Shown: piece after piece, positions 18,426 through 64,000 of the stretch
How positions within the stretch are numbered: position 1 is the first letter of the stretch
Layout: every line of letters starts with the position of its first letter
NCBI GenBank assembly: GCA_963698475.1
Contig: CAVOQX010000004.1
Span: 32,466 to 96,465, forward strand
Source: an uncultured Gammaproteobacteria bacterium
GTDB taxonomy: Bacteria; Pseudomonadota; Gammaproteobacteria; Xanthomonadales; Xanthomonadaceae
Reading direction: 5' to 3'
Length of the DNA stretch: 64,000 nucleotides
The notes under the pieces: generated by a model
What the model was told of the DNA's origin: nothing
What the model saw: only the letters and a program-made list of their open reading frames with translations
The model's database searches: none
Program-made: the position numbers and the translations under genes

Positions 18426-21359
18426 TCAGATCGCCATCGGTTCGCTGAAGGCTTCCGGCTCGTCCTTGAAATCACCGATCGGCACGCAGCTGCACATCAC
18501 GTTCTTGTCGCCGTAGACGTTGTCCACGCGCGCCACCGGCGGCCAGTATTTCTGCTGGCGCAAGCTGGCCAGCGGGAACACCGCCAGTTCCCGGCTGTAC
18601 GCACGCTTCCACTCGGCAGCCGCCGCCTGGGTCGCGGTGTGCGGGGCATGTTTGAGCGGGTTGTCCTCGCGATCCAGTTCGCCGCGCTCGACCATGCGGA
18701 TCTCGTCGCGGATCTGGATCATGGCGTCGATGAAGCGGTCGAGTTCATGCAGGGATTCGGACTCGGTCGGCTCCACCATCAGCGTGCCCGCGACCGGGAA
18801 GCTCAGGGTCGGCGCATGGAAGCCGAAATCGATCAGGCGCTTGGCGACGTCTTCGGCGCTGATGCCGCTGATCTTTTCCAGCGGGCGAAGGTCGAGGATG
18901 CACTCGTGCGCCACCAGTCCATTGCGGCCGGTGTAAAGCGTCGGATAGTGCGGGGCCAGCCGCCTGGCGACGTAGTTGGCATTGAGCATCGCGACCTGGG
19001 TGGCCTTGCGCAGGCCGGTCGCGCCCATCAGGGTGATGTACATCCAGCTGATCGGCAGGATCGACGCCGAGCCATACGTCGCGGCGCTCACCATGTTGCC
19101 GGCGCCCACGCCCTCGGTGGCAAAGGTGCCGGGCGTGATCGCCTTCGGCAGGAACGGCGCCAGGTGCGCCTTGACCGCGCACGGGCCAACGCCCGGGCCG
19201 CCACCGCCATGCGGAATGCAGAAGGTCTTGTGCAGGTTGAGGTGGGACACGTCCGAACCCCATTTGCCCGGCTTGGCCACGCCGACCAGTGCGTTCATGT
19301 TCGCGCCATCGGTATAAACCTGCCCGCCGTGCTGGTGCACGATCTCGCAAATCTCGACCACGTCCTCCTCGAACACACCATGGGTCGACGGGTAGGTGAT
19401 CATGATCGCCGCCAGCCGGTCGCTGTATTTCTCGGCGTTGCGGCGGATGTCCTCGACGTCCACGTTGCCGTTGGCGTCGCACTTGGTCACCACGACTTTC
19501 ATCCCGCACATCTGGGCCGATGCCGGGTTGGTGCCGTGTGCCGACTCCGGGATCAGGCAGATGTCGCGCTGGGCCTGCTCGCGCGACGCGTGGTAGGCGC
19601 GGATCGCCAGCAGGCCGGTGTATTCGCCCTGCGCGCCGGAGTTGGGCTGCAGGCTGACCGCGTCATAGCCGGTGCATTCCACCAGCATGGCTTCCAGCCC
19701 TTCGATCAATTCCTTGTAACCCTGCACTTGCGCGGCAGGTGCGAAGGGATGGATGTTGCCGAATTCCGGCCAGGTCACCGGGATCATCTCGGCGGTGGCG
19801 TTGAGCTTCATCGTGCAGCTGCCCAGCGGGATCATGGTGCGATCCATCGCCAGGTCCTTGTCCGACAGCGCACGCATGTAGCGCAGCAGTTCGTGCTCGC
19901 TGTGGTGGGTGTTGAACACCGGATGGGTGAGGAAATCGCTGGTGCGTGCCAACGCGTCCGGAATCAGCGAGGGTGCGCTCGCATCCAGGGCATCGATGGA
20001 CGGCAGCGCGCCATCGTCGGTCGAGAAGATGCGCCACAGCAGTTCCAGGTCGGCACGCGTGGTGGTTTCGTCCAGCGAAATGCAGATCGAGCCATTGCCA
20101 CGCAACCGCAGGTTGGCGCGCAGCGCTTGGGCGCGCGCCACGATCGCGGCTGAAGCGCCACCTGCTTCGATGCAGAGGGTATCGAACGCGCTGGCATGCA
20201 CCACCTGGTGGCCGAGATCGCGCAGGCCGGCGGCCAGGATCGCGGTCATCCGCGCAACGCGCTGCGCGATGCGGGTCAGGCCTTGCGGACCGTGGTAGAC
20301 CGCATACATCGCGGCCATCACCGCCAGCAGGACCTGCGCGGTGCAGATGTTGGAGGTCGCCTTCTCGCGGCGGATATGCTGTTCGCGGGTCTGCAGGGTC
20401 AACCGGTAGGCCACCTTGCCCTCGGCATCCAGCGATGCGCCGATCAGGCGGCCCGGCATCGAGCGCTTGTAGGCGTCGCGGCACGCCATGAAGGCCGCAT
20501 GCGGGCCACCAAAGCCGAATGGCACGCCGAAGCGCTGGGTGTTGCCGATCACGATGTCCGCGCCCATCTCGCCCGGCGGCTTGAGCAAGGTCAGCGCGAG
20601 CAGGTCGGTGGCGACCACGAACAGCGCATCGTGCGAATGGATCATGTCGGCATCGCGGTCCCATTCGGCAATCCAGCCGCTCGATGCGGGGTATTGCACC
20701 AGCACGCCGAAGTAGTCGCCCGCAGCGAGTTTCTCGTGGAAGGCGTCGGTGGAACGGACGACTTCGACCACGAGGCCCAATGGTTCGGCGCGGGTGTGGA
20801 GTACTTCCAGGGTCTGCGGGTGGGTGTCGCCGGCCACCAGGAAGGTATTGGACTTCGACTTGGCCGAGCGCTTGGCAAGGGTCATGCCCTCGGCCGCCGC
20901 CGTGGCTTCGTCCAGCAACGACGCACTGGCGATATCCATCGCGGTGAGGTCGGTGATCATGGTCTGGAAGTTGATCAGCGCTTCCATGCGGCCTTGCGAT
21001 ATCTCCGCCTGGTAGGGGGTGTAGGCGGTATACCAAGCCGGGTTTTCCAGGATGTTGCGCAGGATCACGTTCGGGGTGTGGGTGCCGTAGTAGCCCTGGC
21101 CGATGAAGCTGCGGAATACCTGGTTCTTCTGCGCGATGGCGCGGATGCTGGAGAGTGCATCGACTTCGCTGATCGCTTCGGGCATGGCCAGGGGAATGGA
21201 GGATCTGATCGACGCCGGGACGATGGCATCGGTCATGGCTTCCAGCGAGTCCTGGCCGACTACCGCCAGCATCGTTGCGATTTCCGCATCGTTCGGGCCG
21301 ATGTGGCGTTCGATGAAGGCGTCGTGGTGTTCGAGGGCGCGGAGATTGGGCGTCGACAT
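18426..21359 (-). CDS. gcvP: Glycine dehydrogenase (decarboxylating), glycine cleavage P protein
   Basis: ATG 21359 inside ORF 18426..21416; [22 protein letters not shown].. and full-length single-chain P protein similarity. Confidence 0.95.
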
Positions 21360-21464
21360 GGGGGGCGTCCGGAAGATACGGCGAGGATGGGGGCGTTGCG
21401 GCCCGCCGCGATGCATCGCGGTGGGTGCTTGCAGGGTCGCGGCTGGCGCCGCTCGAAAGCCCTG

Positions 21465-21668
21465 CTCGCCCCTCTGTCCTTTTGCCTGAGAGTTTGGAAG
21501 CGCGCAGGCAGGGGAGGCGAACCTGCAGCGACTTCTTGCCCCTTCGGCGCCGGCATGCGTGTGCTGCCGATCTCTCCAGAGTTGTGGTCACACGGCGGTA
21601 TCGGGCCTGAGCGATTCCGGGCGGTTGCGCCTTCGGCAGTGGCGATGCGCGCCACTTCTCCCACCATG
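21465..21668 (-). promoter_or_regulatory. Tandem glycine riboswitch in gcvP leader
   Basis: - strand reads GGGAGAAG..CUGCCGAAGGCGCAA..CUCAGGCCCGAUACC then CUCUGGAGAG..GCGCCGAAGGGGCAAG..CUCUCAGGCAAAAGGAC, the hallmark blocks of two glycine aptamers. Confidence 0.85.
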
Positions 21669-33728: not shown

Positions 33729-33841
33729 TTCATGTGTTCCAGCACCCAGGTTGAGTCGGGCACCTGCGTTGCACGGCGGAGCGACACATCACCACGCAAG
33801 CCGAGCTGCTCGGCGGTCGCGGCTTGAACGAATCGTTAGGC
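33729..33841 (-). repeat. Decayed attC
   Basis: ccagcacccaggttgagtcggg..caagccgagctgctcggcggtcgcggcttgaacgaatcgttaggc. Confidence 0.55.
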
Positions 33842-34041
33842 GGCAGCCCCCAAAGTAGCCGACGCCAGCACAAGGCCGCCAAGCACCAATGAACACAAGC
33901 CTATCAGCGCGATGAAGCGCGTTGCGCGCGGAACAGCTTGCTTGGCGAAGCGATGATGCCATCGCCACGGAACCGTGAGCAAGTCGGGCCAAGAAGCGGT
34001 TTCGCCGTGAACGAACAGTCGGGCGTCTTATCAGTGGCCTC

Positions 34042-34512
34042 TTACGGGACTGTCAGGGCACGAATCCATTGTTTGCCGATCTTGCGCATCGCGTGAAATG
34101 TATGCAGATCATCGCCTCCGCCGGCCAAGTCCACTGGCCTGCCAAAGCTGATCCTGTACGCCTGTCGACGGATCACGACCACGATGCTGCCGGCGAAGGT
34201 GTACCAAGGGCAGTGCGTCGAGACATCCAGCAAGGCCTCGCTGAAGAGTGTGGCGCTTCCTGTTTCTTTGAGACGACTGGCGAACTCGGCAACACCTGAC
34301 CGTCGCTCGAGCTTCCTGAGTTGCCAGTCCCACGCGCTTCCGGTCCCGCTTGCCGTGAAAGTGAGGCGCGATCCGCTCAGATCGAGCTCGCCGGGAACAG
34401 AACTTATCCCGCACAGGAGCCAAGCAGCAGAACGCATGTTGCGCCGTGTGGGGCCGCCTGATTTTTTCAGTTGCAGGGATCGCATGAGTAGCTCGGAATA
34501 CGCCTGGCTCAT
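34042..34512 (-). CDS. Hypothetical protein
   Basis: ORF 34042..34512, 156 aa; no recognisable motif; followed by eroded attC-like tail (cggtttcgccgtgaacgaacagtcgggc). Confidence 0.45.
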   Translation of the reverse strand: MSQAYSELLMRSLQLKKSGGPTRRNMRSAAWLLCGISSVPGELDLSGSRLTFTASGTGSAWDWQLRKLERRSGVAEFASRLKETGSATLFSEALLDVSTHCPWYTFAGSIVVVIRRQAYRISFGRPVDLAGGGDDLHTFHAMRKIGKQWIRALTVP

Positions 34513-34550
34513 TAATCGAACTACGAAGAGGTTTCAGCTTGAACGAATTG

Positions 34551-34856
34551 CTACACGCCACCAACTGTCAGCCAGAAGGAAATTTCCGGCGGGCCGGCGA
34601 GAAATGCCCCTGCGCTCTGGATGAAGGACTGGATGTGCGGTTGTTGCATGTGCGGGCCCAGGAAGACCTCTTGGCTGGGCCAACGTTCGATGAGGGTGAT
34701 CCGACAGGAGTCGTTTGCATCCTGGAGCATGGTTATGCCGCCGCACTCTGGCTCGGAAGCGTGGACTGCGGCAATGAGTGCAGCGATTTCGTGTTTGGCA
34801 GTGCTTACTTGATCCGGTAGCACGCGATAGTTGACGACGACAGTTGTTCCGCTCAT
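34551..34856 (-). CDS. Antibiotic-biosynthesis-monooxygenase (ABM) domain protein
   Basis: ORF 34551..34856, 101 aa; ..ITLIERWPSQEVFLGPHMQQPHIQSFI.. typical ABM ferredoxin-like fold signature. Confidence 0.6.
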   Translation of the reverse strand: MSGTTVVVNYRVLPDQVSTAKHEIAALIAAVHASEPECGGITMLQDANDSCRITLIERWPSQEVFLGPHMQQPHIQSFIQSAGAFLAGPPEISFWLTVGGV

Positions 34857-35079
34857 GGACAGGCTCCGAGATATGGCTTATGGCGTCCATTGCCTTGCGA
34901 CCGAAATCAAGCCGTCTAGCACGCCAATGGTTGCAGGAGTTGAAACGGATTGGCCGATATTGAGGCTGCTCAGATCGAACTTCTTCATTGCGATTCCAGG
35001 ATCGAGCGTGTGGTCCGGAGTCTAGCGAAGAGAACTCGCCACCGTCCAACACGGGTGTTTGCGGTCGCTTTGTGATGCC

Positions 35080-35388
35080 TCACTCGCCTGATCGGCGACG
35101 TTTGCGAACTTGGAACATCTTGCGTGCTTGCGCACCTACGACGCCAATACCAACTGCCATGAACAGGATGCCCCGCGCACCGATGAACTGACTGATGCGC
35201 GCTTCGGGTGTGGAGCTGGATGTTGGAAAGAACACCAACCAGCAAATGAGAAGGAATGCCGCGGCGAGAACGGTTCCGGCAAATTTCTGCGCGATGCCGC
35301 CACGCTGCCGCGCTACTTGCCACAGGAAGATTCCTGGTGCAAGCACCGCAAAAATGACAATCACGATTGCAAAAATCCGAGCGAGCAT
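35080..35388 (-). CDS. Small membrane protein
   Basis: ATG 35388 inside ORF 35080..35544 (upstream part of that ORF is attC translation); three hydrophobic helices. Confidence 0.5.
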   Translation of the reverse strand: MLARIFAIVIVIFAVLAPGIFLWQVARQRGGIAQKFAGTVLAAAFLLICWLVFFPTSSSTPEARISQFIGARGILFMAVGIGVVGAQARKMFQVRKRRRSGE

Positions 35389-35402
35389 TGTGGTGACGCT
35401 GT

Positions 35403-35509
35403 ACCTGACACCTGCGTTAAGGAGGTCCGCTGCGCGGACCGGCGGTGTGGTACGAGATACCGCACAAGCCGAGCCGCGCAGCGGTCTCGGCTTGAACCAA
35501 TGGTCAAGC
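35403..35509 (-). repeat. Partly decayed attC
   Basis: acctgacacctgcgttaagg..ggtacgagataccgcacaagccgagccgcgcagcggtctcggcttgaaccaatggtcaag. Confidence 0.6.
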
Positions 35510-35899
35510 GTCACTCCGTTCTTTTTTGAGCGCCGTGACCTCAATCTCGATCCGCATTCTGGGATCCGCTAGGCCTGCTGAGATCATCATGGCGGCAGGC
35601 CGCACTTCACCGAAATACTTGCGAAGCACTGGCCAGCACTTCTCGAAATCCGTTGCGTCTGGGAGGACATAGGTGACTTTCACCACGTCACCAAAGCACG
35701 ACCCTGCTTGCTCCAGAGCAACACCGATGTTCTTCAGGCATTGCTCGGCCTGATCAGCCACACCCGGAGCAATTGTCATTGTCGGGTAGTCGAATCCCGT
35801 CGTTCCCGAGACGAACACCCAATTACCCTCTGCGACTGCGCGGGAATAGCCAATCTCTTTCTCGAACGTCGAACCGGAACTGATGAGCTGGCGAGTCAT
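35504..35899 (-). CDS. RidA/YjgF/L-PSP-family enamine/imine deaminase
   Basis: ORF 35504..35899; GYSRAV..GNWVFVSGTTG..VKVTYVL..PAAMMISAGLADPRMRIEIEV. Confidence 0.8.
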   Translation of the reverse strand: MTRQLISSGSTFEKEIGYSRAVAEGNWVFVSGTTGFDYPTMTIAPGVADQAEQCLKNIGVALEQAGSCFGDVVKVTYVLPDATDFEKCWPVLRKYFGEVRPAAMMISAGLADPRMRIEIEVTALKKERSDA

Positions 35900-35931
35900 G
35901 GGTCAATGCTCAGGTTGCTGAATAGCTCTGT

Positions 35932-36044
35932 CGGACACCTGGCGCCTGAGTTAATCCTGGACGCGCAGCAAGCCGAGGGGTCTGCTACACGATAGCGCAT
36001 GAGCCGAGCCGCGGAGCGGTCTCGGCTTGAATGAATAGTTGGGT
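35932..36044 (-). repeat. Partly decayed attC abutting IS
   Basis: cggacacctggcgcctgagttaatcc..gctacacgatagcgcatgagccgagccgcggagcggtctcggcttgaatgaatagttgggt. Confidence 0.6.
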
Positions 36045-36080
36045 CTGGGTGGAGCGACCCGGCTTTCTCGGACAGTGGAC

Positions 36081-36992
36081 CTAAGGCACATACCTTAGGC
36101 GATTGAACCGCTCTTCGTATTGAGCCGGCGATTGATATTCCAAAGCCGAGTGCATCCGCGTGCGGTTGTAGAAGACCTCGATGTAGTTGAACAGCGCGAT
36201 TCTGGCTGCTTCGCGGGTTGCGAAGGCTTTGTCCGGAACCCCTTCCAGCTTGAGCGTGCTGAAGAAGCTCTCGGCCATCGCGTTGTCATACGGCATGCCC
36301 GGTCGGCTCATGCTCAGGATCATTTTCGCTGACTCCACTTTTGCCCGGTAGCGGGCGCTGGTGTATTGGCAGCCCCGGTCGTGATGAAGGACCAGGCCCG
36401 GCTTGGGGCGACGATGCACGATCGCCATGTGCAGGGCACGCTCGGCCAGTTCGAGCGTCTGCCGCGAGCCCATCGCCCAACCGACGATGCGGCGACTGCA
36501 CACGTCGAGCACGGTGGCCAGATAGAGCCAGCCCTCGCGCGTCGCAACGTGCGTGATGTCGCCCACCCACACCCGATCGGGAGTCGAGCTTGCAAACGGC
36601 CACGCGAGGCGATTGGGCGCTGCAGGCACCCGCTGGTACGCGGCGCGAGTACGCACGAAGCGACGCCGACGCAGCGTCACCACGCCATGTCGACTGCGCA
36701 GTCGCGCGACACGATGCCGGCCGCATGCCTCGCCGCGAGCGACCAGCACCCGCCAGAGTCGACGCGTGCCGTAGACCTGCCGGTGCTCCATGTGTGTCGC
36801 CTGGATCACTATTGCCAAGCGCACATCGGCCTGCTCGCGCGCACTCGGCTTGCGCTGCTGCCACGCATGGAAGCCGCTGCGTGAGACGCCCAGCGCGCGA
36901 CACATCGCGGTCACCGGGTAGGCGACTTGCTGCTCTTGGATCCAGGCGTACCGCGCGCTGGCGCGCTCGCGAAGTACGCCTCGGCTTTTTTT
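36081..36992 (-). CDS. IS3-family transposase OrfB (DDE), expressed by -1 frameshift
   Basis: ORF 36081..37124; VWVGDITHVATREGWLYLATVLDVCSRRIVGW..HHDRGCQYTS..PYDNAMAESFFSTLKLE. Confidence 0.8.
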   Translation of the reverse strand, partial: KKSRGVLRERASARYAWIQEQQVAYPVTAMCRALGVSRSGFHAWQQRKPSAREQADVRLAIVIQATHMEHRQVYGTRRLWRVLVARGEACGRHRVARLRSRHGVVTLRRRRFVRTRAAYQRVPAAPNRLAWPFASSTPDRVWVGDITHVATREGWLYLATVLDVCSRRIVGWAMGSRQTLELAERALHMAIVHRRPKPGLVLHHDRGCQYTSARYRAKVESAKMILSMSRPGMPYDNAMAESFFSTLKLEGVPDKAFATREAARIALFNYIEVFYNRTRMHSALEYQSPAQYEERFNRLRYVP

Positions 36993-37211
36993 AGGATCTC
37001 GAGCTCCATCTCGGCGCTGGCCAAGGCCCGACGCAATCGCATGAGCTCGGCTTGCTCGAGCGAACGTCTCCCCGATCCGGGAAATGCCTCCTTCTCGCCA
37101 ACGGCCTGCACGGCCGAGCTCCACTTGTACAGACGATTGCGAGGCACACCGAGTTCGCGCGACAGCTGCGCGATCGGCTTGTCGCCGATCTGCATCTGTC
37201 GCACCGCCTCG
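36911..37211 (-). pseudogene. IS3-family transposase OrfA, N-terminally truncated
   Basis: ..EAVRQMQIGDKPIAQLSRELGVPRNRLYKW..ELEILKKAEAYFAS; first nine codons of ORF 36911..37237 (MSVKSGVNP) are read from the IS-B terminal repeat. Confidence 0.7.
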
Positions 37212-37569: not shown

Positions 37570-38409
37570 GTGATCGAACGTTGTCGCGATGAGTTCCCAG
37601 TCCGGCTGATGTGTCGTTGCTTGCGGGTATCGGCCAGCGGTTATTACGATTGGCGCCAGCACATACCCAGCGCCCGTCAGCTCGACAACGAACGCTTGCT
37701 GGGGCGTATCCGTGGGCTTCACGAAGACAGTCGGGGGGCGTTGGGAGCGGGACGGATGCAGGAAGACCTTGCCGATGAAGGCGAGACAGCCAGCCTGAAC
37801 CGCGTCGCACGGTTGATGGCCGTCGATGGCTTGCAGGGCTGGCCGCGCCCGAAGCGACGAGGCCAGCGGGGGCGTCCAGCGCTTACCCCGCCAGGCGTGC
37901 GCAACCGGCTGGAACGGGACTTCACCGCACTGGAGCCAGAGACCAAATGGGTCACCGACATCACCGAGATCAAGACCAAGGAAGGCAAGCTGTATTTGTG
38001 CGTTGTGCTGGACCTGTTCGACTACCGCGTGGTGGGCTGGTCAATGCATCATCGGCAGGATCGGCAGATGGTTGTCCGAGCCGTGCAGATGGCCGTATGG
38101 CAGCGCCAGGGCAACGAACCGGTGATCATGCATTCGGATAGAGGCAGTCAGTTTCGAAGCGGTGACTACCAGAAGTATTTGCTGGCCAATGCCCTGGTGT
38201 GCTCGATGAGCGCCGTGGGTCATTGCGGAGACAACGCCGCATGCGAGGGCTTCTTCGGCCTGCTCAAGCGCGAACGGATTTACCGCATGACATATCCGAC
38301 ACTCGATGCGGCAAGAGCGGATGTGTTTGAATACATCGAGCGGCGCCACAACCCAAGGATGCGGCGAAGAACCGCCAGAGAGGATTTGAAGTTTTCCACC
38401 CTTTCATAA
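37570..38409 (+). CDS. IS3-family transposase OrfB (DDE), -1 frame relative to OrfA
   Basis: ORF 37570..38409; [57 protein letters not shown]. Confidence 0.85.
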
Positions 38410-53915: not shown

Positions 53916-54755
53916 GTGATCGAACGTTGTCGCGATGAGTTCCCAGTCCGGCTGATGTGTCGTTGCTTGCGGGTATCGGCCAGCGGTTATTACGATTGGC
54001 GCCAGCACATACCCAGCGCCCGTCAGCTCGACAACGAACGCTTGCTGGGGCGTATCCGTGGGCTTCACGAAGACAGTCGGGGGGCGTTGGGAGCGGGACG
54101 GATGCAGGAAGACCTTGCCGATGAAGGCGAGACAGCCAGCCTGAACCGCGTCGCACGGTTGATGGCCGTCGATGGCTTGCAGGGCTGGCCGCGCCCGAAG
54201 CGACGAGGCCAGCGGGGGCGTCCAGCGCTTACCCCGCCAGGCGTGCGCAACCGGCTGGAACGGGACTTCACCGCACTGGAGCCAGAGACCAAATGGGTCA
54301 CCGACATCACCGAGATCAAGACCAAGGAAGGCAAGCTGTATTTGTGCGTTGTGCTGGACCTGTTCGACTACCGCGTGGTGGGCTGGTCAATGCATCATCG
54401 GCAGGATCGGCAGATGGTTGTCCGAGCCGTGCAGATGGCCGTATGGCAGCGCCAGGGCAACGAACCGGTGATCATGCATTCGGATAGAGGCAGTCAGTTT
54501 CGAAGCGGTGACTACCAGAAGTATTTGCTGGCCAATGCCCTGGTGTGCTCGATGAGCGCCGTGGGTCATTGCGGAGACAACGCCGCATGCGAGGGCTTCT
54601 TCGGCCTGCTCAAGCGCGAACGGATTTACCGCATGACATATCCGACACTCGATGCGGCAAGAGCGGATGTGTTTGAATACATCGAGCGGCGCCACAACCC
54701 AAGGATGCGGCGAAGAACCGCCAGAGAGGATTTGAAGTTTTCCACCCTTTCATAA
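53916..54755 (+). CDS. IS3-family transposase OrfB (DDE)
   Basis: ORF 53916..54755, identical product to 37570..38409. Confidence 0.85.
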
Positions 54756-54781: not shown

Positions 54782-54832
54782 AGCGCAAAGGTGAAGCTAC
54801 GAAGCGGCGTCGGCTTGAACGAATAGTTAGGG
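54782..54832 (-). repeat. attC32 (type B), truncated by IS-B copy 2
   Basis: Only agcgcaaaggtgaagctacgaagcggcgtcggcttgaacgaatagttaggg remains. Confidence 0.8.
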
Positions 54833-58427: not shown

Positions 58428-58534
58428 GCCTAACACCTGAGTTAAGCCGGGACGCGTAGCGGCTCGGCGGGGTGGTACACGATACCGCGCGAGCCGAGCC
58501 GCGAAGCGGTCTCGGCTTGAACGAATAGTTAGAT
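58428..58534 (-). repeat. attC40 (type A)
   Basis: gcctaac..gttagat. Confidence 0.85.
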
Positions 58535-59599
58535 TGCAACAGGTGCTATCTCCAAAAACTCACAAATTATGCGGAGCCTTTCGCGAAGATTGGATGCGTC
58601 ATTTGTACCTTGCTGGGATAAGCGGTCGTACTCCAGTAGTTCGAAGTTCGCGTCCTCATAATCGTTCTCTGCCGAAATACGGTTCTGACGAACTGCTTCC
58701 CGGAATGCGAAGATCTCTGAGCGCGTGAGCGCATGTGCGGACTCATCGGCACTCTTTACTAGCAAATAATAAAGTGCCATGTTGCCCTGTGCTCGTAACA
58801 GCTCGTCTCCCTGGACGAATAGAGTATTCATGCGGTTCAAGTTATTACGGACTATTCCTGCAAGGCTATTAACTTCAGAAAGTTTTCCGGTCTTGTAGTT
58901 GCGCGCCAAGGCGTCGAGATACACTTTCTTTGTGTCCGAAATTTTACCAAGAGCGCCAATGTTGTGTTCAATCAACAGCAGTCGCGCCGCAACTTCTCGA
59001 TGTTGGAATCTTCGATTGCTGAAGGAAACTTTGTTTTGAAAAAGCGGATGAGATGAGATATCACGAATCGCAGATACTAAGTCGCCACCAATTGCGTTTC
59101 GTTTTTCAGCGGCATTTAGAGGTACCGCTTCATTCAAGCGCGAAAACATGTCCTCAATAAGTTCGATGTCATCGGTCTCAACGCATACAATTGGTAGAAC
59201 GAATGAGTCAAAATATATTTTCAGTTTTGGAAATGAAGCAGCCAGATCGCTATAGCCAAGACTCATAAGCAAGATGGATGGATCTTCTTGGTACTCAAAG
59301 TCGGGCGAGAGCGTAAACGCACCCTCCATGAATTGCCATATAGTTTCTAGTCTTTGCTTGCCGTCAATAATTGCATACGAAAATTCATTCCCGGCGCGTT
59401 GCTCTCGAGTGAAAGCGTGTAAATATATTTTTGGGATGTCATATGAATTTAGAATTGAGTCTATGAGAAGTTGCTTTTTCTCAAGCGTCCAGATTCCACC
59501 AGCGCGTTGATAATCAGGTTCTGTGTTAATCAAATCTTTTTCTGAGTAGAGCCGCATGATAGTGCTGTGTTGCATTGGAAAGGTTTCAATGTAGCTCAT
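58529..59599 (-). CDS. DUF262 (ParB-like nuclease superfamily, GmrSD N-terminal type) protein
   Basis: ORF 58529..59599; PDYQRAGGIW, IIDGKQRLETI (DGQQR motif), FSRLNEAVPLNAAEKRNA; no recognisable DUF1524/HNH half. Confidence 0.8.
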   Translation of the reverse strand: MSYIETFPMQHSTIMRLYSEKDLINTEPDYQRAGGIWTLEKKQLLIDSILNSYDIPKIYLHAFTREQRAGNEFSYAIIDGKQRLETIWQFMEGAFTLSPDFEYQEDPSILLMSLGYSDLAASFPKLKIYFDSFVLPIVCVETDDIELIEDMFSRLNEAVPLNAAEKRNAIGGDLVSAIRDISSHPLFQNKVSFSNRRFQHREVAARLLLIEHNIGALGKISDTKKVYLDALARNYKTGKLSEVNSLAGIVRNNLNRMNTLFVQGDELLRAQGNMALYYLLVKSADESAHALTRSEIFAFREAVRQNRISAENDYEDANFELLEYDRLSQQGTNDASNLRERLRIICEFLEIAPVAI

Positions 59600-60345
59600 C
59601 TCAGTGTGCTCCGAATGTTTTCACCGATGCTTGATAGTTCCGGAAATAGAGAGAACTTTGAATACCCTAATAGCTTTAATTCACGTCGGAAAACATCCCG
59701 TGACTCTGGAGGGATTTCATACTTAATGACGTGTGTACGTGCTCCAACGTCTTCCAGTGCAATATTGTCAAGATGGTGAATTGTAAATGCACCAAGTTGA
59801 GCCTGGATTCGTGAGTTATTTCTAGTTGCGATGCTGGCTATAGGAAGGAGGCGCGTTCGTTTAGGGCCGGCGGCAAGTGTTTCTAGCTTGTAGTTGCTTA
59901 GCTCTTCGTCTTCGAAGGAAGGAATGAAGAATTCTTCACTTTGATCGTTGATGTGTGCCTCCTTATTTAGCTCGGAAGGCTTGAGCACCCAGAGAGCTGA
60001 GTCACCATCGTGATCTGGTTGTGAGTCGTTTACTGCAAAATACAAAGCCACGAGCGGGCTTTCTGACCAATCCAAAAGCCTTGTTGGCAGACCATAGTGC
60101 TGCATCAAGAAGAGCCAATCGTAGCTGTCCTTTGGCTCTCGATGTACCAGCAGGGCAGCGCTCTGTTTGAACCTCTTTAGAAGCGTTCCCTCGGATGGGG
60201 CTTCCACTAGTCTCAGGTAGCCTGGTAGCAGCTTCCAATTGCTGTTGGAGTGCCCGCGGAACCAGACGGCTCCGTTGTAGGAGCCAACGTCTTCTTCCAG
60301 GCCCTCAAGAAGTTGAGCTAGATTGCTTATTCTTCGAGTCGTCAT
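59596..60345 (-). CDS. FRG-domain protein
   Basis: ATG 60345 inside ORF 59596..60369; VWFRGHSNSNWKLLPG, LMQHYGLPTRLLDWSESPLVALYFA, NSRIQAQLGAFTI; stop overlaps DUF262 start (ATGA). Confidence 0.8.
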   Translation of the reverse strand: MTTRRISNLAQLLEGLEEDVGSYNGAVWFRGHSNSNWKLLPGYLRLVEAPSEGTLLKRFKQSAALLVHREPKDSYDWLFLMQHYGLPTRLLDWSESPLVALYFAVNDSQPDHDGDSALWVLKPSELNKEAHINDQSEEFFIPSFEDEELSNYKLETLAAGPKRTRLLPIASIATRNNSRIQAQLGAFTIHHLDNIALEDVGARTHVIKYEIPPESRDVFRRELKLLGYSKFSLFPELSSIGENIRSTLR

Positions 60346-60360
60346 GATGTCTCCATTGCA

Positions 60361-60467
60361 ATCTAACACCTGAGTTAAGCCGGACTGCGAAGCGGCGCGG
60401 CGTTGTGGTACACGATACCGCGTTAGCCGAGCCGCGAAGCGGTCTCGGCTTGAACGAATAGTTAGAC
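60361..60467 (-). repeat. attC41 (type A)
   Basis: atctaac..gttagac. Confidence 0.85.
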
Positions 60468-60938
60468 CCCTCTCGATGCTTCTTTTTCGAAGCTGCGAAG
60501 CCGACTCAGTTCGTAAAGGATGAGTCCAAAGACTCCGAGGCCGCCCAGAAGTGCAACTGCCATGCCAAGTACAAAGAACTCAGCGCCACTCTCACTGTGC
60601 GAAGTCATGGAAGCCCGCATGAGCGGAGTAGCGATCCAACCCAAAATGCTTGAAGCTGCCCCAACATATAGAAGAAATGTGCCTGTAGCTCGCAGTAGAG
60701 CGATGAAGCCAGTAGCTTGAAATGCAGCGAGAGTTCTTGGAATGCGAGCCACCACATAGATCCGATAGCCCCCGAGCAGAAGAAACAAAATTGTACCGAT
60801 GTAAGGAATATTGCCGACGAGATTTGAGCCAGTAGCCATAGCTACCCAGCTGGAACGAGTGATTCCAAATGGAACTATTGCACCGAGCACTACAATGCAA
60901 TATGCGATCTTTGTGAAAAGTGATGCGTCCTTGCTCAT
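60462..60938 (-). CDS. Membrane protein (4-5 TM)
   Basis: ORF 60462..60938. Confidence 0.65.
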   Translation of the reverse strand: MSKDASLFTKIAYCIVVLGAIVPFGITRSSWVAMATGSNLVGNIPYIGTILFLLLGGYRIYVVARIPRTLAAFQATGFIALLRATGTFLLYVGAASSILGWIATPLMRASMTSHSESGAEFFVLGMAVALLGGLGVFGLILYELSRLRSFEKEASRGV

Positions 60939-63932: not shown

Positions 63933-64000
63933 GCCTAACACCTGAGTTAAGCCGGACCGTGCAGCGGCGAGGCGATGTGGTACACGATACCGCGTTAGCC
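63933..64000 (-). repeat. attC48 (partial, cut by window edge)
   Basis: gcctaacacctgagttaagccggaccg.. runs off the window. Confidence 0.8.

Follow-up and report, generated by a model that had tools for sequence, protein, structure and literature searches.

We analyzed a stretch of 64,000 nucleotides (hereafter, the window) from an uncultured gammaproteobacterium of the family Xanthomonadaceae (assembly GCA_963698475.1, contig CAVOQX010000004.1, positions 32,466 to 96,465). The right half of the window, from approximately 33.8 kb to 64 kb, is an integron array of the sedentary type. One of its gene cassettes, the FRG-DUF262 cassette, carries two genes on the minus strand that encode an FRG-domain protein and a DUF262 protein. 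A preliminary description of the window had proposed that these genes form a two-component defense module carried as a single integron cassette. In this report, we describe the anatomy of the cassette (Table 1), the occurrence of homologous gene pairs in other organisms, and the roles that the two proteins might have.

Table 1. Features of the FRG-DUF262 cassette and its borders (positions are those of the window).
Feature	Coordinates	Strand	Basis
FRG-DUF262 integron cassette, two genes and own attC	58434..60366	-	G/TT sites of two canonical attCs; 1,933 bp
attC of preceding cassette	60361..60469	-	consensus match; bottom strand folds at -29 kcal/mol, z=-4.7
GGAG Shine-Dalgarno sequence	60351..60354	-	5 nt before the FRG ATG, read from sequence
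FRG-domain protein, 249 aa, putative effector	59596..60345	-	Pfam PF08867 E=1.1e-25; PADLOC PDC-S15 E=1.6e-53
Pfam FRG core, residues 27-111	60013..60267	-	W28-x-R30-G31, E52, H83-x3-PTRLLDW93
ATGA stop/start overlap of FRG and DUF262 genes	59596..59599	-	read from sequence
DUF262-only (NsnA-like) ParB-family NTPase, 356 aa, putative DNA sensor/regulator	58529..59599	-	Pfam GmrSD_N E=4.5e-17
ParB/DUF262 NTPase domain, residues 22-169	59093..59536	-	PxYQR, DGKQR, FSRLN...EKRN motifs
All-helical C-terminal domain, about residues 173-349	58553..59083	-	secondary structure of the model; equivalent to NsnA ParBDB
Cassette's own attC	58428..58536	-	consensus match; folds at -33.4 kcal/mol, z=-5.2

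The cassette is delimited by G/TT crossover points at 60367/60366 and 58434/58433. Its 5' boundary is the R' box GTTAGAT (60367-60361) of the preceding attC, and the R'' box of its own attC overlaps the TAA stop codon of the DUF262 gene (58529-58531). Both flanking attCs form imperfect hairpins when folded. Throughout the array, 51 matches to the 5' half and 47 to the 3' half of attC are found, all on the minus strand, and a 23-nt attC core is present in 27 copies, compared with 0 expected by chance. The FRG-DUF262 unit is an integron gene cassette: it is flanked by folding attC sites bounded by RYYYAAC...GTTRRRY, and it is mobile as a unit. The latter property is evident from a second copy of the cassette in a gammaproteobacterial metagenome-assembled genome (JAHFRW010000005.1; locus L001, 5233-7088), whose FRG and DUF262 proteins share 93% and 83% amino acid identity with those of the window. 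DNA homology between the two copies begins at window position 60367, the G of G/TTAGAT, and ends 20 nt into the attC; the ends of the L001 cassette hold the remnants GTTAGATTGCAATGGAG and TCTAACAATTCGTTCAAGCCGAC. Carriage as a single cassette, as proposed earlier, is therefore apparent from both the folding attCs and the exact boundary in L001.

The downstream attC of L001 differs from that of the window and is truncated, and upstream of the L001 cassette lies a 15-nt inverted repeat (gagcctgtagaaaaa / tttttctacaggctc) that resembles another attC type. The arrangement at this locus suggests that cassettes have passed between integrons whose attC families differ.

The cassette was previously noted to be AT-rich relative to the core genome and its neighbors, and the measurements agree. 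Its GC content is 0.470 (0.461 for its genes), the lowest in the array, versus 0.495-0.61 for each of the other cassettes, 0.559 for the array as a whole, and 0.659 for the core genome (bases 1-33000); its base composition is thus atypical for the host. The further claim that it is the largest cassette needs qualification, because the array has longer inter-attC intervals, one of 2,002 and one of 3,156 bp. These two hold IS3-family transposases, so the FRG-DUF262 cassette is the largest that has not been enlarged by an insertion sequence (IS).

Both genes of the preliminary description are present, and the four-base overlap that joins them is as it had stated. The start of the FRG gene was assigned to the ATG that follows a Shine-Dalgarno sequence; the GTG at 60369, which opens a longer open reading frame (ORF), falls inside the attC R' box. 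FRG homologues are approximately 249 amino acids (aa) long. The protein matches 14 PDC-S15 models in PADLOC, where PDC-S15 is a candidate defense system. Residues W28, R30, G31, E52, H83, P87-W93, N127, R179 and Q183 are kept (at least 95%) in relatives down to approximately 29-30% identity, and the FRG motifs quoted earlier are genuine, with most of their core residues among those conserved. To judge from this pattern of conservation, the residues look catalytic or active-site-like. The AlphaFold2 model of the protein has a predicted local distance difference test score (pLDDT) of 76 and a predicted template modeling score of 0.79. The Aravind group has placed FRG in the ADP-ribosyltransferase (ART) superfamily and predicted that it acts as an antiviral effector or NADase (PMC9503650; PMC12522546); this assignment is also found in Legionella ART surveys (PMC12522546). 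No NCBIfam model matches the FRG or the DUF262 protein.

Dozens of proteins encoded on IMG/VR contigs (L152-L187, many from sample 3300045988) match only the N-terminal approximately 120 residues of FRG, have varied C-terminal halves, and are not accompanied by DUF262. Because these viral proteins share only its N-terminal part, the FRG core is widely reused in phage or prophage genomes. The model phrog_4962 matches the C-terminal two-thirds of the FRG protein.

In the DUF262 protein, Pfam recognizes GmrSD_N over residues 22-169 and no second domain. A DUF1524/His-Me (HNH) nuclease domain is absent according to Pfam and NCBIfam, no histidine in the C-terminal half is conserved at 95% or more, and the structural model (pLDDT 86) has an alpha/beta N-terminal domain followed by an all-helical one, in agreement with the initial observation that a recognizable nuclease half is missing. 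The motifs quoted for this protein are also genuine. D79, G80, Q82 and R83 are kept at 95% or more in 69 DUF262 sequences, and F152/R154-N156 and E165-R167, further core residues of these motifs, are kept in distant relatives, down to approximately 29-30% identity. At the same threshold of at least 95%, the motifs PxYQR, DGxQR and FxRLN...EKR are retained, as are R197, K224, D229, D265, R293 and R341 in the C-terminal domain. The best PADLOC match is to NsnA (E=2.8e-29, 100 bits), and it extends over nearly the whole protein (residues 4-350 against profile positions 46-380 of 385); a weaker match is to PD-T4-2_A (E=2.7e-13). When the model was compared with known structures by using Foldseek, the top match was BrxU (7p9k, probability 0.96); ParB CTPases and SspE (7drs) came next. 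A profile search of PDB sequences with the DUF262 family gave no match. A ParB-DUF262 domain followed by a ParBDB domain is the architecture of the Menshen sensor NsnA, and the DUF262 domains of NsnA, GmrSD and SspE act as DNA sensors (PMC12065111).

The two genes are found together far beyond this integron. A scan seeded with the DUF262 protein, covering one genome per GTDB species, yielded 19 loci with 41-83% identity. The FRG gene ends at the start of the DUF262 gene in all 19, which come from at least ten phyla and span Gamma-, Beta- and Alphaproteobacteria, Bacteroidota, Planctomycetota, Acidobacteriota, Verrucomicrobiota, Omnitrophota, Paceibacterota and others. Scans seeded with an FRG alignment gave 80 metagenomic and 80 viral loci. 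When only close FRG homologues were considered (at least 180 bits, with downstream DNA present), the gene right after FRG encodes a DUF262 protein in 43/43 of the metagenomic loci and 8/8 of the viral ones; among lower-scoring FRG loci, this fraction falls to 7/22 and below. The junction between the genes is also conserved, with a 4-bp overlap in 62 of 88 nonredundant pair loci and a distance of -13 to +6 bp in 87 of them. Pairwise divergences of the two proteins are strongly correlated (Mantel r=0.90, a value reached in 0/999 permutations). Comparison with L001, the nearest cassette copy, gives ratios of nonsynonymous to synonymous substitution rates of 0.036 for FRG and 0.055 for DUF262, which indicate purifying selection on both. 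Within the clade, which comprises approximately 100 clusters (at 50% identity) of an FRG superfamily of approximately 27,000 clusters, the pairing is obligate and not a product of chance.

Clustering of 442 neighboring ORFs from 89 nonredundant pair loci revealed no conserved third gene; the only clusters obtained were those of methylase, Vsr, Eco29kI, integrase and ResIII, and none is universal. No fusion of FRG to DUF262 was seen among the best 150 of 27,013 FRG representatives, all of which are 374 aa or shorter.

The genomic contexts of the pair are typical of defense genes. In Alcaligenes faecalis, it lies beside a tyrosine integrase, a cluster of Vsr, DUF2357/PDDEXK_7 and Dcm genes, and DUF4917. 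In Betaproteobacteria, it is found downstream of a ZorA-like three-gene operon; on prophage contigs, it adjoins CI and CII genes. It also resides on Ralstonia solanacearum megaplasmids (20 records) and on a Hymenobacter plasmid, where the annotation reads "FRG domain-containing protein" and then "DUF262 domain-containing protein". A census of 113 neighboring proteins from 21 species-level loci, based on Pfam and PADLOC, is led by C5-cytosine methylase (7 loci); next come ResIII, Mrr_cat, Eco29kI, integrase, HNH and DDE transposases. The association with mobile elements and defense genes that the preliminary description had anticipated is thus present. Integron cassettes are known to carry defense systems, and the distribution of the pair, in integrons, prophages and plasmids, is patchy and indicative of horizontal transfer.

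Two further arrangements were seen near the pair. A ResIII/DEAD helicase (approximately 510 aa) and a protein of approximately 175 aa that belongs to no known family adjoin it in 4-5 loci, and may represent another co-traveling defense module (loci with these genes are L013:37-2093, L015, L074, L077, L068 and L112). On a viral or prophage contig (L185:1217-3466), two tandem TsiV genes, whose products are type VI immunity proteins for VRR-NUC, directly precede an operon of methylase, FRG, DUF262 and Vsr genes.

A strong association of the pair with C5-cytosine methylases, of possible importance for its mechanism, had escaped the preliminary description. In a like-for-like comparison of loci from FRG-seeded scans, a C5-cytosine methylase gene lies within 4 kb of 14/41 pair loci versus 2/54 loci with FRG only (Fisher p=1.4e-4), and overall a methylase adjoins about one third of the homologous pairs elsewhere. 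Three arrangements recur. The methylase, FRG and DUF262 genes can be in tandem with gaps of 36-44 bp, as in L133 (4858-7832), L143 (4923-7943) and L185 (3599-7194), in one case followed by Vsr. Alternatively, the methylase gene is convergent with gaps of 22-110 bp (L018, 5208-8349; L068; L017), or a set of Eco29kI-type methylase, endonuclease and Vsr lies immediately upstream of the pair (L057, L061 and L064). Vsr always accompanies the methylase, not the pair. The neighboring methylases are diverse (26-73% identity) and diverge partially in step with DUF262 (Mantel r=0.52, 2/999 permutations). Their frequency depends on the clade: 3/27 loci in the clade of the window, 13/24 in a middle clade, and 4/12 in a distant one. 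No homologue of a C5-cytosine methylase, Vsr or Eco29kI is encoded in the cassette or the 64-kb window, so a protective methylase is not obligatory. We rejected the methylase as an obligatory partner, given that it is missing from most loci of the window's clade.

Several known systems share parts with the pair, and none accounts for all of it. The defining partner or domain of each is absent and no conserved third gene is found, so the pair is not Menshen, GmrSD, PD-T4-2 or Dazbog. Among the closest is Menshen (NsnABC), reportedly described by Millman et al. 2022. The DUF262 protein has the layout of NsnA, with a ParB-DUF262 NTPase, a helical ParBDB and no nuclease, and it matches NsnA end to end. 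The two systems likely share the logic of a DNA-sensing ParB-like protein that controls a separate effector. However, the NsnA match is distant, there is no NsnB ABC ATPase and no NsnC inPIN-nuclease effector in the two-gene cassette, and the 89 loci share no additional gene; instead, the candidate effector is the FRG protein, encoded upstream and translationally coupled. With GmrSD, BrxU and SspE, the pair has in common an N-terminal DUF262 domain with DGxQR and QRxxxW, the closest structural matches, and an association with DNA-modification genes. Unlike these proteins, it lacks a DUF1524/His-Me half in the same polypeptide, and its putative effector is a separate FRG protein of unrelated sequence; GmrSD was rejected because there is no nuclease domain.

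PD-T4-2 and Dazbog likewise consist of two genes, with a DUF262 protein that lacks a nuclease at their center (PMC12065111). The resemblance ends with the weak PD-T4-2_A match, since PADLOC gave, at E<=0.1, no match of FRG to PD-T4-2_B and no match of either protein to any model of Dazbog, the components of which are DzbA and DzbB. The PDC-S15 models, which the FRG protein fits well, describe a single gene, whereas FRG in this clade is obligately paired with DUF262. If FRG is an ART, then NAD+ consumption or ADP-ribosylation would also be shared with defenses such as DarTG, RES toxins, AbiGi, Thoeris and SIR2-type systems; however, none of these has a sequence or structure match to FRG, and control by a ParB-like NTPase is not described for them. 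We found no mention of FRG together with DUF262, ParB or integron defense in the searchable literature, in line with the earlier remark that the pairing was not recognized as a named system, although an earlier mention in Burroughs & Aravind 2020 is possible. That paper (J Bacteriol) is said to be the main source for a role of FRG as immune effector. What appears to be novel is a ParB/DUF262-centered defense with a swapped, separately encoded effector.

We favor the hypothesis, with a probability of roughly 60%, that the pair is a two-component immunity module, with an NsnA-like ParB-type NTPase as its presumed DNA-sensing or DNA-binding part and the coupled FRG protein as its presumed effector. 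This preference follows from the obligate pairing, the defense-type contexts, and the established roles of DUF262 in GmrSD, BrxU, SspE and Menshen. The defense role proposed in the preliminary description has therefore held up where it could be evaluated computationally, namely in co-occurrence and neighborhoods, and the pair is a candidate system predicted from sequence.

Such a module might operate as follows. The cassette genes would be transcribed by read-through from upstream cassettes. Because the genes are translationally coupled, it is probable that FRG and DUF262 work together in a complex. Through its ParB-family NTPase domain and its helical DNA-binding domain of the NsnA type, the DUF262 protein would bind DNA and distinguish invader from self, plausibly by the state of cytosine modification, and would then license the FRG effector. 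To halt infection, the effector would use up NAD+ or attach ADP-ribose to a target, which might be DNA; this presumed chemistry comes from the literature, since the Aravind group assigns FRG to the ART superfamily.

A more elaborate form of this hypothesis, which we regard as speculative and rather doubtful, is that the pair is the executive arm of an unrecognized class of cytosine-methylation-linked immunity. The ParB-type NTPase would read 5-methylcytosine or another modification state, and would either guide an ART-fold enzyme to the DNA of an invader (for example, for DarT-like DNA ADP-ribosylation) or trigger NAD+ collapse. In operons of methylase, FRG, DUF262 and Vsr genes, the pair would replace a restriction endonuclease, and the cassette would be a portable version that is independent of the methylase.

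Several observations weigh against a two-component immunity module. The support for a defense role comes from comparative genomics, and the neighborhood census has an internal control only and draws on loci that are phylogenetically nonindependent. More distant FRG proteins occur alone, with no conserved neighbor or alternative partner, so the effector may not strictly need one; this pattern fits the single-gene PDC-S15 model of PADLOC. PDC-S15 is itself a computational candidate, for which the sole support found was a correlative feature in a Pseudomonas aeruginosa host-range model. As for the ART assignment, a Foldseek comparison of the FRG model with PDB and BFVD returned nothing below E=0.02 (the best ART-like match was EcPltA, E=1.7), and a profile search of PDB sequences with the FRG family gave no match. 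The FRG model is least confident (pLDDT 47-53) at residues 66-90 (window approximately 60076-60150), precisely where the most conserved motif, H83-x-G-x-PTRLLDW (QHYGxPTRLLDW), is located; these residues may become ordered only with a ligand or partner.

Expression poses an additional difficulty. No sigma-70-like promoter is found upstream of the FRG gene inside the cassette, and such sites occur in the region at chance level. Because no promoter-like site precedes the FRG gene, expression of the pair must rely on read-through. The minus-strand orientation of the cassettes places intI and attI outside the window, presumably beyond position 64000, and at least 8 cassettes within the window separate FRG-DUF262 from the Pc promoter, which is beyond the window. 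The pair may therefore be barely expressed in this host.

The main rival, which we consider unlikely, is that the pair is a GmrSD-like restriction system divided between two proteins, or that it supplies the restriction activity of a restriction-modification system. According to this explanation, DUF262 reads cytosine modification, FRG stands in for DUF1524 as a DNA-targeting nuclease or DNA-modifying enzyme, a neighboring C5 methylase marks self in many lineages, and the clade of the window is a free-standing derivative. The geometry of the adjacent methylases (tandem, convergent and Eco29kI-type sets) is that of restriction-modification loci, their enrichment is specific to the pair, and they partially co-diverge with DUF262. 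Moreover, GmrSD, BrxU and SspE each couple DUF262 to a nuclease, and the conserved H83, D92, E52 and N127 of FRG could be metal ligands. However, searches with Pfam, Foldseek and PDB profiles detected no similarity of FRG to any nuclease fold or family. The methylase is present at only about half of the middle-clade loci and is rarer still in the clade of the window, whose own locus has no adjacent cognate methyltransferase, and several methylase-linked loci already have an Eco29kI endonuclease.

The remaining explanations fit the data less well. Toxin-antitoxin cassettes are common in sedentary chromosomal integrons, and it is conceivable, if improbable, that the pair is an addiction module that stabilizes the array or mobile elements, with FRG as toxin, DUF262 as neutralizer, and no dedicated anti-phage role. 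The tightly overlapping bicistron, the predicted and potentially toxic use of NAD+ by FRG, and the presence of the pair on plasmids, prophages and islands are all consistent with this view. On the other hand, proteins of 249 and 356 aa are far above typical type II sizes, and the supposed antitoxin, which is under strong purifying selection, still has an intact NTPase site as well as a DNA-binding domain. Integron toxin-antitoxin cassettes usually have their own promoter, and none was detected within this cassette; also, immunity is a better fit for a pair that is specifically linked to C5 methylases and restriction-modification genes. Abortive-infection defense and toxin-antitoxin behavior are, in any case, mutually compatible. 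Least probable is that two independent single-gene functions travel together or serve housekeeping (for example, as DNA-repair accessories of Dcm/Vsr loci): stand-alone FRG relatives exist, PDC-S15 is modeled as one gene, and Vsr repair genes recur nearby, but the 100% co-occurrence in the clade in both directions, the 4-bp overlaps, the correlated divergence, the patchy, horizontally transferred distribution, the atypical base composition, and the association of Vsr with the methylase rather than the pair argue against this explanation.

If the pair is indeed an immunity module, it would add to the ParB/DUF262-centered defenses a widespread two-gene system of many phyla, prophages, plasmids and integrons, and would give the large, uncharacterized FRG family its first functional context. 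With its sensor and effector as two separate, small proteins, it would be a simple model for signaling by nuclease-less ParB-type NTPases. The linkage to C5-cytosine methylases suggests a new coupling of DNA methylation to immunity. The concept of integrons as defense biobanks, known from Vibrio, would also be extended to the chromosomal integron of a high-GC proteobacterium. The pair is compact, has a wide distribution and lends itself to experiments; its cultured carriers include Ralstonia solanacearum, Alcaligenes faecalis, Pseudomonas fluorescens R124, P. corrugata and Rhodoferax sediminis.

Some other features of the window are also worth recording. The array contains three IS3-family transposase ORFs (rve and HTH_21), at 37570-38409 (+), 53916-54755 (+) and 36081-37124 (-). 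Two of them score identically; that near 54.8 kb has cut off part of an attC, whose 5' half is at 54829. At the distal end of the array (33800-36050), attCs become ever more degenerate at about 36.0, 35.5, 34.5 and 33.8 kb, and beyond them the GC content rises stepwise to the core value. A cassette of approximately 371 bp is present in twelve copies within 42964-63016 (for example, 57501-57130, 57130-56760, 56760-56389, 44928-44558 and 43707-43335). The copies are 94-99.7% identical and carry a variant attC (...CAAGCCGACGCCGCTTCGTAGC...). There is no convincing ORF in the cassette sense and no match in Rfam, and the element may be noncoding or regulatory and amplified in the array. Finally, the core-genome part of the window contains a glycine riboswitch (Rfam RF00504, 64.6 bits) at 21464-21589 on the minus strand, upstream of a 996-aa ORF (18426-21416) and unrelated to the cassette.

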